From the NCBI RefSeq assembly GCF_024502345.1, contig NZ_JALDNN010000002.1: a stretch of 64,000 nucleotides of DNA. One strand, written 5' to 3'. The translations under genes and the position numbers were made by a program. The notes beneath the pieces were generated by a model. That model worked only from the letters and a program-made list of their open reading frames with translations, was not told where the DNA came from and made no database searches. This document shows, piece after piece, positions 21,007 through 25,016 of this stretch (the first letter of the stretch is position 1; every line of letters begins with the position of its first letter). Origin of the DNA: Escherichia coli. GTDB lineage: Bacteria; Pseudomonadota; Gammaproteobacteria; Enterobacterales; Enterobacteriaceae.

Positions 21007-21288
21007 TCAGTACAGGGCAATGACAGGTTTCTTGATGCCGCAGGCGTGAGCGTAGCGGGTCAGTGTGTCGATGCTGGCTTTGGTGATGTTGTTTTCCAGG
21101 CGAGAAATAACCGGAGGTGTAACCCCCATGCGTTCAGCAACCTGCGCTTTTGTCAGGTTGTCATGCTTGCGCCATTCAGCAAGCAGCTCCCTGAGCTTTT
21201 CCTTACGTTCTTCTTCCTGCCATGCAGCGCGATATTCATCGTCCTGCATCCACTCGTTATGCAGTTCTTTATGGCTTACCAGTTTCAT
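21007..21288 (-). CDS. higA: HigA-like antitoxin (HTH XRE family)
   Basis: 93 aa with HTH (LTKAQVAERMGVTPPVISRLEN); overlaps upstream toxin gene. Confidence 0.8.
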   Translation of the reverse strand: MKLVSHKELHNEWMQDDEYRAAWQEEERKEKLRELLAEWRKHDNLTKAQVAERMGVTPPVISRLENNITKASIDTLTRYAHACGIKKPVIALY

Positions 21289-21598
21289 TAAGTACCTCCG
21301 CTAACCGCTTTTTGGCGAGATCGATTTCTTTCGCTGGCGTTTTCTGTGACTTCTTGATGAAAACACGGAGCATGATGATGGTATTGCCTTTGTGGTATAC
21401 CCAGATTCCCCTGGCTATGTCCGTCCCCATCGTGCGGATCTCAAAAAGTCCATCGCCCAGGGGCTTCGTGTCCGGCTCCCGCAGTAATCGGGCGTCATAC
21501 TCCAGTTTGCCGATGAGACGGTCAAACTTCACCCTGATTTTTACGGGTAATGCTGTGGCTTCTTCCCTGGCTTCCGGGTGATAAACAACGCTAAACAT
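21269..21598 (-). CDS. higB: HigB-like toxin (RelE/ParE superfamily), toxin-first operon
   Basis: About 109 aa, RelE-fold-like; gene order toxin then antitoxin is typical of higBA. Confidence 0.75.
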   Translation of the reverse strand: MFSVVYHPEAREEATALPVKIRVKFDRLIGKLEYDARLLREPDTKPLGDGLFEIRTMGTDIARGIWVYHKGNTIIMLRVFIKKSQKTPAKEIDLAKKRLAEVLNETGKP

Positions 21599-21709
21599 GT
21601 GACCTCCCATTTCTATTAATATTAACCTATAGGCTAATTTCAGACAAGGTAGAATTAACCTATAAGCTAATTTTGTTGGCAGTTATCGTGGCTACCCGGT
21701 CACTACCCT

Positions 21710-21747
21710 GTTAGCGTGAGTTTTCGTTCCACTGAGGAACGGGGATT
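21710..21747. repeat. Tn3-family IR-like 38-bp sequence (inner 27 bp match Tn3 IR, outer 11 bp differ) abutting IS26
   Basis: GTTAGCGTGAGTTTTCGTTCCACTGAG matches the reverse complement of CTCAGTGGAACGAAAACTCACGTTAAG. Confidence 0.55.
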
Positions 21748-22567
21748 GGCACTGTTGCAAATAGTCGGTGGTGATAAACTTATCATCCCCTTTTGCTGAT
21801 GGAGCTGCACATGAACCCATTCAAAGGCCGGCATTTTCAGCGTGACATCATTCTGTGGGCCGTACGCTGGTACTGCAAATACGGCATCAGTTACCGTGAG
21901 CTGCAGGAGATGCTGGCTGAACGCGGAGTGAATGTCGATCACTCCACGATTTACCGCTGGGTTCAGCGTTATGCGCCTGAAATGGAAAAACGGCTGCGCT
22001 GGTACTGGCGTAACCCTTCCGATCTTTGCCCGTGGCACATGGATGAAACCTACGTGAAGGTCAATGGCCGCTGGGCGTATCTGTACCGGGCCGTCGACAG
22101 CCGGGGCCGCACTGTCGATTTTTATCTCTCCTCCCGTCGTAACAGCAAAGCTGCATACCGGTTTCTGGGTAAAATCCTCAACAACGTGAAGAAGTGGCAG
22201 ATCCCGCGATTCATCAACACGGATAAAGCGCCCGCCTATGGTCGCGCGCTTGCTCTGCTCAAACGCGAAGGCCGGTGCCCGTCTGACGTTGAACACCGAC
22301 AGATTAAGTACCGGAACAACGTGATTGAATGCGATCATGGCAAACTGAAACGGATAATCGGCGCCACGCTGGGATTTAAATCCATGAAGACGGCTTACGC
22401 CACCATCAAAGGTATTGAGGTGATGCGTGCATTACGCAAAGGCCAGGCCTCAGCATTTTATTATGGTGATCCCCTGGGCGAAATGCGCCTGGTAAGCAGA
22501 GTTTTTGAAATGTAAGGCCTTTGAATAAGACAAAAGGCTGCCTCATCGCTAACTTTGCAACAGTGCC
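21748..22567 (+). mobile_element. IS26 copy 1 (820 bp)
   Basis: 14-bp IRs GGCACTGTTGCAAA / TTTGCAACAGTGCC; Tnp26 ORF; no 8-bp target duplication. Confidence 0.97.
21811..22515 (+). CDS. tnpA: IS26 transposase Tnp26
   Basis: MNPFKGRHFQRDIILWAVRWYCKYGISYRELQEML... 234 aa. Confidence 0.97.
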   Translation: MNPFKGRHFQRDIILWAVRWYCKYGISYRELQEMLAERGVNVDHSTIYRWVQRYAPEMEKRLRWYWRNPSDLCPWHMDETYVKVNGRWAYLYRAVDSRGRTVDFYLSSRRNSKAAYRFLGKILNNVKKWQIPRFINTDKAPAYGRALALLKREGRCPSDVEHRQIKYRNNVIECDHGKLKRIIGATLGFKSMKTAYATIKGIEVMRALRKGQASAFYYGDPLGEMRLVSRVFEM

Positions 22568-23078
22568 CGTCTGCCCGCAGCGGCATTGAGCTGGTTTCCC
22601 CGGCCGGGAACCGGAAACCCATTGCGTGCCACAGCCTGTCCCTCCGGATCTTGTTTTCTTCTTTTTCTTCATCAACCTGGGAAATTTCAATCGGCAAAAC
22701 CCGGGTTTCTGGCGGAAGGCATCTGGCCCAGAGCACAAACTGCTGCGTGATCCAGCTACCCAGGCCGTGTCCCTGCAGGCGCCGTTCTAGTCTGAACTCA
22801 TCTGTAAACAGATGCAGGGCCTTCTGTTGAGGCCAGTAGATTGCAGTGAAAGCCTGAGTCTTCGTCTGTTCGGTATCGGCCAGGTACAGTATCATTATGC
22901 AGGAGACCCGGTACAATCCGTCGGGAAAATGGTCAGAAGTTGGCCCCCACGATTGCTCCCTGCACAGAATGACGATCAGATTTTCCTCCTGGCGGGTACT
23001 GTTATTTGTAATGATCTCCGGCAATGTCACGAGCCACATTGTTTTGTCCTTAACTGTCCGGGTCACGCAGTCGGTCAT
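22568..23078 (-). pseudogene. Hypothetical protein, 3' end truncated by IS26
   Basis: ORF 22461..23078 continues into the IS26 IR; no confident family assignment. Confidence 0.35.
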
Positions 23079-23247
23079 GTTTTTTCCCTGGAGGGTTATA
23101 CCCCGGTGCTGTCAGCAGATATCGGATAGGGGAGTGTCCCCTGCCCCCACGAAAGCCTGCAGGGCATCCGCTCCGGAGGGCAGTTCATGCTGAGGGTTAA
23201 TCTCTGCGTCAATGGCTTCGTTTTGACATCCTCCCCGTCCTTCAATG

Positions 23248-23553
23248 TCAAATTCCCCAGAACATCAGGTTTATCGCATTTTTGATGTCATTTTCCCGGT
23301 GGCTGAGATCGGCCACTTCCTCCCCGGTGACAGAGGCCGTGACGCTGGCCATGTCCGTGGTCATCAGGCGATAGCTGTCGTCCCCGATGTGCACCACCGG
23401 ATAGAGATCACGGGAGACCTTATCCGACAGCAGCCGGGCGCTGGACAGCGGGATCACCATCCGTCGCCCGGGGGTATCGATGATGTCACTCTGCACATCC
23501 ACGAACAGACGATAGCGGCTCTCTCTTTTATAGGCATAAACCTTAAACTGCAT
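23248..23553 (-). CDS. ccdB: CcdB toxin (DNA gyrase poison)
   Basis: 101 aa [36 protein letters not shown]... near-identical to F-plasmid CcdB as recalled. Confidence 0.95.
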
Positions 23554-23554
23554 C

Positions 23555-23773
23555 TCACCAGTCCCTGTTTTCTTCGGCGAATGAACCGTTCATTTCAATA
23601 AACCGGGCAACCTCGGCCATCCCTTCCTGATTTTCAGCCTGCCAGCGTTCTGCACGCAAACGGCGGGCCTCATTCTGCATGGCCGTGTTCACCAGACGGG
23701 ATATATTGACGTCCGCGGATTTCAGTAACTGATAACTGTCGCTGTCTATGGTGACGGTGATGCGCTGCTTCAT
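23555..23773 (-). CDS. ccdA: CcdA antitoxin
   Basis: 72 aa [28 protein letters not shown]... Confidence 0.95.
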
Positions 23774-24372
23774 AATGCACTCCTGAATACATACTAATGA
23801 TATGCATATCAGTATAGCTTACTGATGCAACTGATACACGCCCGACTGAAACATACTGTTATGTCGCCATTCATTTCATAACGTGAAATTCATATACAAA
23901 ATAATCAACCATGAGATAACAAGCAGACGTATAGACACGTCGTTAAATTACCGGACGACCGTTCCGGTCGGATCCGACTTTCCGCGCTTTACTAAGTTTC
24001 CGGAAGTGTATCACGGTCAGGAAATAAGCAAAGCGGCGTTTTCCGGTGGTGAGCGGCCGGTCACGGGGCAGGGGAGGGACACAACATATAGCGTCAAAGT
24101 CAGCTGGGAACACCGCTACATCTTGTGTTGCCGGGCCGCTGCGCGCCGGTGGGGTTCGCAGAGATCCGGGACTGGTATTTTTCGGATCTGAGCGGGAAAA
24201 GTGAGAAACCAACATAGGTGTAACATATCCATATGTCGGGCATCTGCATAGGCAAAGCATACGCATATACCTACCATCTGCATATGTAACACCTATACAA
24301 GCCGGGCTTGCAGGCATATACTTCACCTATGCGGGAATACTCCCTGGCACACTCAGCATATGAGGAAAAACC

Positions 24373-24603
24373 ATGCGCACAGTTTCGATATTTAAAAACG
24401 GCAATAACCGCGCCATCCGTCTGCCCCGGGACCTGGATTTTGACGGCGTCAGCGAGCTGGAGATCGTCCGGGAAGGGGACAGCATCATTCTGCGTCCCGT
24501 CCGGCCGACCTGGGGCTCGTTCGCGCAGCTGGACAGGGCCGATCCGGACTTTATGGCGGAGCGTGAGGATGTGGTCAGCGATGAAGGACGCTTTGAGCCA
24601 TGA
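24373..24603 (+). CDS. vapB: VapB/VagC antitoxin (AbrB/SpoVT fold)
   Basis: 76 aa MRTVSIFKNGNNRAIRLPRDLDFDGV...; 4-bp overlap with toxin gene. Confidence 0.9.
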   Translation: MRTVSIFKNGNNRAIRLPRDLDFDGVSELEIVREGDSIILRPVRPTWGSFAQLDRADPDFMAEREDVVSDEGRFEP

Positions 24604-25016
24604 AGAAAACCTGGATGCTCGACACTAACATCTGCTCGTTCATCATGCGCGAGCAGCCGGCAGCGGTGCTGAAGCGCCTGGAGCAGGTGGTGCTGCGCGG
24701 TGATCGCATCGTGGTCTCGGCCGTGACGTATGCCGAGATGCGCTTCGGCGCCACCGGCCCGAAGGCCTCGCCGCGCCATATTCAGCTGGTCGACGCGTTC
24801 TGCGCGCGCCTCGATGCCATCCTGCCCTGGGACCGGGCTGCGGTGGACGCCACGACGGACATCCGGGTGGCGCTGCGCCTCGCCGGGACGCCGATCGGCC
24901 CGAACGACACCGCCATTGCCGGACACGCCATCGCGGCGGGCGCCATCCTGGTGACGAATAATACAAGAGAGTTTGAGCGGGTGCCGGGTCTGGTTCTGGA
25001 AGACTGGGTTAAGTAA
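24600..25016 (+). CDS. vapC: VapC/VagD PIN-domain toxin
   Basis: 138 aa, PIN motif MLDTNICS...; classic vapBC arrangement. Confidence 0.9.
   Translation: MKKTWMLDTNICSFIMREQPAAVLKRLEQVVLRGDRIVVSAVTYAEMRFGATGPKASPRHIQLVDAFCARLDAILPWDRAAVDATTDIRVALRLAGTPIGPNDTAIAGHAIAAGAILVTNNTREFERVPGLVLEDWVK

Follow-up and report, generated by a model that had tools for sequence, protein, structure and literature searches.

In a survey of 1063 Klebsiella pneumoniae plasmids, ccdAB, vagCD, higBA and MNT-HEPN-like modules were recorded on IncF and IncR plasmids, with combinations possible, and ccdAB is usually one of several toxin-antitoxin (TA) systems on IncF plasmids (PMC7326226). The vagCD pair upstream of resD belongs to the IncR backbone (PMC7707992). 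Here we analyze a stretch of 64,000 nucleotides (nt) from an Escherichia coli plasmid (contig NZ_JALDNN010000002.1 of assembly GCF_024502345.1), referred to below as the window, in which positions 21007-25016 hold three complete type II TA operons according to the listing of open reading frames (ORFs) and profile searches: a higBA-like pair, ccdAB, and vapBC of the vagCD type. Very probably these are three independent, intact and autoregulated operons of known families, placed adjacent to each other by rearrangements mediated by insertion sequences (IS) on a mosaic MCR-10 plasmid. The families and the multi-module arrangement are already known, and the proteins are identical to widespread ones.

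The ORFs were taken from a six-frame listing and from direct reading of positions 20400-25600, and families were assigned with Pfam and NCBIfam profiles. Related loci, designated L001-L011, were inspected; they include pRo24724 (L003), an IncK plasmid (L005) and the Enterobacter plasmid pRHBSTW-00059_2 (L010). The identity and integrity of the genes, the boundaries of the fragments and their mosaic history were observed directly.

Identity and integrity of the toxin-antitoxin operons

The preliminary description of this DNA, made from its letters alone, reported adjacent type II modules from three different families, with hepT/mntA as a fourth at a distance; profile searches found all four where they had been placed. 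The segment 21007-25016 is delimited exactly by the stop codons of higA and vapC. All eight TA proteins, HepT and MntA included, are full length, and each is an exact match to a protein found on 83 to at least 1000 public contigs. Inactivating mutations were sought, and no frameshift, truncation or private substitution was detected in the toxins or antitoxins. Because the eight proteins exactly match widespread ones and are free of such defects, the modules look functional.

The higBA-like operon is encoded on the minus strand in reversed order, with the toxin ORF (21598-21269) upstream of the antitoxin ORF (21288-21007) and a 20-nt overlap between them. The toxin, of 109 amino acids (aa), falls into the Gp49 family of the RelE-ParE superfamily (Pfam Gp49, DUF891, PF05973, E=7.6e-23; PHROG 2523, E=6e-34). 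The 93-aa antitoxin carries an XRE-type helix-turn-helix (HTH) domain (HTH_3, E=1.7e-13; HTH_37, E=8e-8; HTH_31); L001 and further loci have it annotated as WP_000780222.1. Exact sequences of both proteins occur on at least 1000 contigs. The higB start, first put at 21610, is annotated at the ATG at 21598; the 113-aa form given by the ORF tool uses an upstream ATG. By profile matching, the toxin does not belong to the canonical HigB family: PF05015 was not matched, Gp49 (PF05973) was the only Pfam family found, and the single NCBIfam match was a sub-threshold RelE/ParE model. RefSeq names the pair a RelE/ParE family toxin and an HTH regulator. We call the toxin HigB-like on the strength of its homology to Streptococcus pneumoniae HigB (6AF3), its sole significant relative in the PDB. 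Membership in the RelE/ParE superfamily suggests that this RelE-fold toxin most likely cleaves mRNA in a ribosome-dependent manner and that the XRE-HTH antitoxin would neutralize it. The name yacAB, used for a pair on IncI and IncF plasmids, was considered for this module and set aside; the title and abstract of the one source inspected point to a ParDE-family system on IncI and IncF plasmids.

A direct repeat upstream of higB (21621-21640 and 21654-21673, 19 of 20 positions matching, 33 bp spacing), whose match quality we estimate to be far beyond chance, had been proposed as the likely operator. The repeat is real, both copies are palindromic, and they bracket a conserved promoter, which makes it a good candidate. 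The proximal copy is the imperfect palindrome ATTAACCTATAGGCTAAT (21621-21638) with arms ATTAACCT-AT-AGGCTAAT, and the distal copy is the imperfect palindrome ATTAACCTATAAGCTAAT (21654-21671) with arms ATTAACCT-AT-AAGCTAAT. Promoter elements read by eye on the minus strand comprise a -35 hexamer TTGTCT (21647-21642) and a -10 hexamer TAATAT (21624-21619) separated by a 17-nt spacer, and a GGGAGG ribosome-binding site was read between this -10 and the higB ATG at 21598. The proximal palindrome occupies the spacer and overlaps the -10, and the distal one lies 7 bp upstream of the -35, so that the candidate promoter/operator as read from the direct repeat, palindromes and hexamers spans 21619-21671 on the minus strand. 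The palindrome centers are 33 bp apart, about three helical turns. This layout is kept in homologues of about 90-97% identity (L005, L007, L009), and in the IncK plasmid the proximal site is a perfect palindrome with 8-bp arms. The natural reading is that the HTH antitoxin most likely represses its own operon at two palindromic operators, one in the -35/-10 spacer and one just upstream of the -35.

A terminator-like hairpin (20984-21003, minus strand; 8-bp stem with seven G-C pairs, followed by a T run) lies directly 3' of higA. Between this hairpin and the neighboring ISKpn26 element lies a direct repeat of 17 nt with a spacing of 26 bp (GTGACATTTCAACTTTG and GTGACATTTTAAACTTG; 20905-20947). 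The short mosaic piece from 20798 to about 20955 is distributed separately among plasmids.

The ccdAB operon is likewise on the minus strand, with ccdA (23555-23773, 72 aa; NCBIfam NF010264, 151.7 bits against a cut-off of 100) directly upstream of ccdB (23248-23553, 101 aa; NF010262, 203.2 bits against 147 over residues 1-101 of 101; Pfam CcdB, 105 against 28.6); the last base of ccdA is 23555 and the first of ccdB 23553. Exact sequences were found on 178 contigs for ccdB and on 121 for ccdA. CcdB aligns along residues 1-101 with F-plasmid CcdB (1VUB, also 1-101) and keeps W99, G100 and I101 in an identical LMFWGI end; a substitution at residue 99 abolishes the toxicity of CcdB in pSLT (PMC7326226). 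From what is known of the family, CcdB would poison DNA gyrase, CcdA would neutralize CcdB, and the pair would act by post-segregational killing.

On the plus strand, vapB (24373-24603) encodes a 76-aa antitoxin of the vagC type with an AbrB/SpoVT fold (NF040493, 92.5 bits against 60; Pfam MazE_antitoxin), and vapC (24600-25016) encodes a 138-aa PIN toxin of the vagD type (Pfam PIN, E=5e-15, 56.5 bits against 23.6). The upstream vapB is translationally coupled to vapC by a 4-nt ATGA overlap at 24600-24603, and exact matches to each gene product occur on 1000 contigs or more. The alignment of VapC to the Shigella and Salmonella tRNA(fMet)-specific VapC structures 9H6A and 3TND is collinear (E=6e-31), and in it the acidic residues D8, E46, D103 and E124 fall on the catalytic residues D7, E42, D98 and E119 of those proteins. 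We file VapC as a VapC-family toxin; the alignment with this enteric clade of PIN nucleases suggests that it would cleave initiator tRNA(fMet) and that VapB would neutralize it. A terminator-like hairpin follows vapC at 25021-25046.

The 599-bp region between ccdA and vapB (23774-24372) is a divergent control region, as judged by its repeats and palindromes and by a promoter scan. It contains a palindrome at 23795-23814, about 20-40 nt upstream of ccdA, and a sigma-70-like promoter upstream of vapB (24294-24322, TATACA-17-TATACT) surrounded by related motifs of about 16 nt at 24214-24228 (inverted), 24280-24296 and 24314-24330. These intergenic elements are putative operators. In relatives, the region is an insertion hotspot, and L011 carries a 1.8-kb insert with a RES-family gene there.

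The fourth module, on the minus strand, consists of hepT (57881-58282; HepT-like, E=9e-27, 93.6 bits), encoding a HEPN RNase, and mntA (58279-58575; NTP_transf_2, E=4e-9, 37.1 bits), encoding a minimal nucleotidyltransferase whose ORF is the upstream one; the two overlap by 4 nt at 58279-58282. The block of cupin gene, hepT and mntA (56925-58633) is 99.9% identical to positions 149-1857 of pRo24724; there, its distance to the same higBA is about 6 kb. A Pfam scan of the 43 remaining small non-IS ORFs of the window (55-175 aa, ATG or GTG starts) matched no further TA family, and across the window no type I or RNA antitoxin or other RNA matched Rfam at the gathering score. The tally for the window is thus four type II modules.

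The plasmid had been described as one that carries mcr and mrk genes. The phosphoethanolamine transferase encoded at 52098-53717 bears out the former, as its product is identical to WP_256632875.1, a variant of the MCR-10 family recorded on a single E. coli contig, and because of this product the plasmid is by sequence of the mcr-10 type, associated with colistin resistance. Putative mrk fimbrial genes lie at about 40.6-46.2 kb, and mrkJ is annotated beneath the matches in one related plasmid.

Insertion sequences and the assembly of the cluster

Three IS elements bound the two fragments from which the cluster is composed. On the left, an ISKpn26 of the IS5 family (19602-20797, minus strand, with terminal inverted repeats; transposase ORF 19749-20729) is 99.7-99.9% identical to the annotated ISKpn26 copies in L001 and L003. 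In the middle lies an 820-bp IS26 (21748-22567, plus strand; transposase 21811-22515, NCBIfam IS6 transposase, 275 bits) with perfect 14-bp inverted repeats. On the right, an IS903B-type element of the IS5 family (25311-26367, minus strand; 18-bp inverted repeats, transposase matching Pfam DDE_Tnp_1) begins where the homology to L011 ends, at 25310.

The higBA fragment of 949 bp (20798-21747) extends from ISKpn26 to IS26. It is 100% identical in plasmids from E. coli, Klebsiella, Citrobacter, Raoultella and Salmonella, with 380 records at least 99% identical, and the best-matching inspected plasmids (L001, L003, L004) show the same ISKpn26 junction. Hundreds of plasmids carry the fragment together with ISKpn26. 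The ccdAB-vapBC fragment of 2743 bp (22568-25310), between IS26 and IS903B, shares 98% identity with E. coli PCN061p6 and 92-95% with IncFIA, IncR and IncFII plasmids of Klebsiella and Enterobacter. Relatives present the backbone order of a resD-like integrase, a 338-aa hypothetical gene, ccdB, ccdA, vapB and vapC, and by sequence the fragment is assigned to the maintenance backbone of IncF/IncR-type plasmids.

The preliminary description saw a cluster interrupted by IS26. The element does lie between higBA and ccdAB, as described, yet it split no existing cluster. An 8-bp target duplication is absent, with differing flanks CGGGGATT and CGTCTGCC, and the two flanks are of different origin; IS26 therefore joined the modules rather than separated them. 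Comparison of the window's four IS26 copies gave no reciprocal 8-bp flanks, and the 4-bp flanks of ISKpn26 are uninformative as its target is YTAR. What IS26 does interrupt is the 338-aa hypothetical gene downstream of ccdB, of which the 5' half (170 codons; 22568-23078, minus strand) is retained and is identical at 166 of 170 positions to residues 1-170 of the L010 protein. The 205-aa ORF of the window consists of these 170 codons and 35 codons of IS26 sequence. In fusing the higBA and ccdAB-vapBC fragments, IS26 removed the 3' half of this gene.

Neither the 205-aa ORF nor the 338-aa protein matched any Pfam or NCBIfam family, and a look-up of the chimeric 205-aa sequence gave no exact match. 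The ORF was considered as a GNAT toxin owing to a GNAT-like RLQGHGLG motif seen by eye and was rejected for want of family support and because of its truncation here. In many IncF/IncR plasmids, the 338-aa protein is encoded between ccdB and the resD-like integrase; it is intact in L010 (3495-4511) and contains a weak internal repeat.

Queries with the entire 4.6-kb region and the two 201-bp junctions found neither IS26 junction in contiguous form among the matches listed from PLSDB and the complete E. coli genomes. The sole listed matches covering at least 80% of the 4.6-kb region are two-piece joins with IS26 about 480-560 bp away. The IS26 junction is the sole feature specific to this plasmid. 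In pRo24724 (4999-8858), a block of IS26, ferritin gene, ISKpn26 and higAB is contiguous. The same block is split in the window into 19599-21747 and an inverted part at 61088-64000, about 40 kb apart, with a copy of ISKpn26 in each; inversion or recombination through ISKpn26 was therefore also at work.

Alternative origins and roles

It had been suggested that higBA arrived on a Tn3-family transposon later clipped by IS26, on account of a Tn3-like inverted repeat remnant near higB. The resemblance is real, and the relic (21710-21747, plus strand, in the orientation of a right terminal repeat) abuts IS26 and matches 27 of the 38 positions of the Tn3 38-mer. It is confined to the inner domain: the inner 20 nt are identical to the Tn3 repeat, for which we estimate a chance expectation of about 1e-7 in 64 kb, the outer 12 nt are unmatched, and the GGGG tip is absent (GGAACGGGGATT as compared with GCGTCAGACCCC). 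An origin of higBA as a transposon passenger, in which IS26 and ISKpn26 deleted tnpA, tnpR and res and left the right-end repeat, would agree with this core, with its orientation, which puts higBA on the interior side, with a serine recombinase gene found beyond ISKpn26 in one plasmid (L001), and with the Gp49/HTH_37 pairs documented in Tn3-family transposons. Those pairs, however, abut the res site and tnpR and not the terminal repeat (PMC7157771), and tnpA, tnpR and res were found neither beside higBA in the window nor consistently adjacent to it in eight inspected related contexts. To the left of ISKpn26, the contexts differ in every inspected plasmid and lack an adjacent tnpA. In plasmids without the IS26 of the window (L001, L005, L006), homology does not stop at the supposed tip but extends across it into a conserved segment rich in hairpins. 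The breakpoints are also separable, as L006 has the repeat and its right flank without higBA, L009 and L007 have higBA without the repeat, and L007 and sampled records of a class of 595 PLSDB plasmids with 95-99% identity lose homology just past the distal operator, at 21674. We consider the transposon origin improbable and do not retain it; the relic is probably the trace of an old Tn3-family event near the locus and does not show how higBA traveled.

In the sampled records of the 595-plasmid class, homology extends from the higA stop (21007) to just after the distal operator (21674), and in other lineages the homology breaks off no more than a few tens of bases from either point. Such boundaries might reflect movement of the Gp49/HTH module as a discrete cassette of about 670 bp, comprising the ORFs and the two operators, perhaps by an undescribed operator- or repeat-associated route, which we regard as quite unlikely; the mundane alternative is repeated recombination together with selection for the functional unit.

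The hairpin-rich segment beyond the relic (L001 7860-8100, L005 7740-8124, L006 7040-7140) contains conserved hairpins with GTTA loops. Between L001 and L005, the changes in the first stem are compensatory, and in the IncK plasmid the segment sits between repA and higB. A relative with 80-86% identity is present in the window at 11052-11313, beside the repE-type replicon. The segment may be a replication or priming element. Elsewhere in the window, a perfect Tn3 terminal inverted repeat (38 of 38 positions; 60887-60924) lies beside an ISKpn26 fragment, and two more 38-mers resembling Tn3-family repeats were found at 38052-38089 and 38715-38752. All three are what remains of genuine Tn3-family elements.

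Regarding function, the redundancy had been taken to imply strong stabilization of the plasmid, a strength that goes beyond what can be drawn from the sequence. Family knowledge suggests post-segregational stabilization, in which labile antitoxins would decay upon plasmid loss and the toxins would stop growth, so that each module would add to the persistence of the plasmid; perhaps the modules also serve in plasmid competition or phage defense. That they are kept mainly for such other roles, namely abortive-infection defense against phages, exclusion of competing plasmids, or stabilization of the local resistance and IS island rather than of the whole replicon, is in our judgment less likely, though it has some points in its favor. 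A defense pair lies about 6 kb from the TA cluster and consists of a WYL-domain regulator (12218-13126) and a GmrSD-type DUF262/DUF1524 nuclease (13141-14871; PADLOC Orf5/HEC-06, E=3e-146). MntA matches the PADLOC candidate defense family PDC-S09, the Gp49 toxin and its antitoxin both fall into phage protein families, and poor stabilization by ccdAB in some hosts as well as other roles have been reported (PMC7326226). In the same PADLOC scan, however, CcdAB, VapBC and HepT were without a match and the HigB-like toxin gave only a weak partial one, and ccdAB and vagCD are classic genes of the maintenance region beside resD. A different objection would be that one or more modules have decayed, through an inactivated toxin or a lost promoter, and that the redundancy is illusory. 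IS elements do lie close to both fragments, with a distance of 150 bp between the higB start and the upstream IS26 and with a truncated gene after ccdB, and the pSLT case shows that a single substitution at CcdB residue 99 is enough to abolish toxicity. We nevertheless hold decay to be very unlikely, as every ORF is full length, collinear with its family model and an exact match to a widespread protein, the CcdB W99-G100-I101 end and the four acidic residues of VapC are kept, and the retained fragments include all three promoter/operator regions.

Our preferred interpretation, three intact and autoregulated operons brought together by IS elements, has several points to its disadvantage. The higBA promoter hexamers, read by eye, match at no more than 8 of 12 positions; they fall below the threshold of the automated scan and are hence unlisted. 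The solved relative of the Gp49-type toxin is only a distant one (6AF3, E=3.9e-5). VapC scores under the cut-offs of the tRNA(fMet)-specific VapC models (NF010285, 113 bits against 143; NF047863, 122 against 140), and stabilization by ccdAB is host-dependent and often weak (PMC7326226). The junction searches rest on the matches listed, among which junction-bearing records would be expected to rank first.

Comparison with known maintenance regions

An MCR-10-family colistin-resistance plasmid with at least four intact TA modules of different families is relevant to annotation and epidemiology. The four modules may aid persistence without selection and could complicate plasmid curing. The locus also exemplifies how IS26, ISKpn26 and IS903B shuffle small maintenance fragments among backbones.

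Described at first as dense, the cluster is not unusual in this respect, since comparable or denser ones are normal on IncF/IncR backbones. In L010, ccdAB, vapBC, a HigB-family pair and an Xre/RES pair lie within about 5.6 kb. The maintenance region of L010 has the same order of resD-like gene, orf338, ccdBA and vapBC, with more TA pairs directly beside it. The neighbors in L010 are the native HigB-family and Xre/RES pairs, whereas the third neighbor in the window is a different module brought by IS26 and ISKpn26.

The individual modules can be compared with their described counterparts in the same way. The ccdAB pair shares its operon order, protein lengths (72 and 101 aa) and collinear CcdB with that of the F plasmid, from which it differs by 11 substitutions by our count from the alignment; unlike the F pair, it is a Klebsiella/Enterobacter-type variant in which an additional gene, the hypothetical 338-aa one that is truncated in the window, comes between ccdB and the resD-like integrase. 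The enteric VapBC/VagCD systems (MvpAT of Shigella pMYSH6000 and Salmonella VapBC) have the same AbrB-type VapB and PIN VapC, the 4-nt overlap and the four acidic residues. In contrast to the 132-aa enteric VapC, the protein of the window has 138 aa with small insertions and stays below the NCBIfam tRNA(fMet) cut-offs, and for these reasons we place the pair in the vagCD subgroup, which is common on IncF, IncR and IncH plasmids of Klebsiella. The higBA-like pair has in common with Gp49-type HigBA and RelE-Xre-like modules the toxin-first operon, the Pfam Gp49 toxin and an XRE-HTH antitoxin that also matches HTH_37. It differs from the canonical HigB of Rts1 and E. coli in lacking a PF05015 match, and from the Gp49/HTH_37 pairs of Tn4662a-type Tn3-family transposons in not lying beside res and tnpR.

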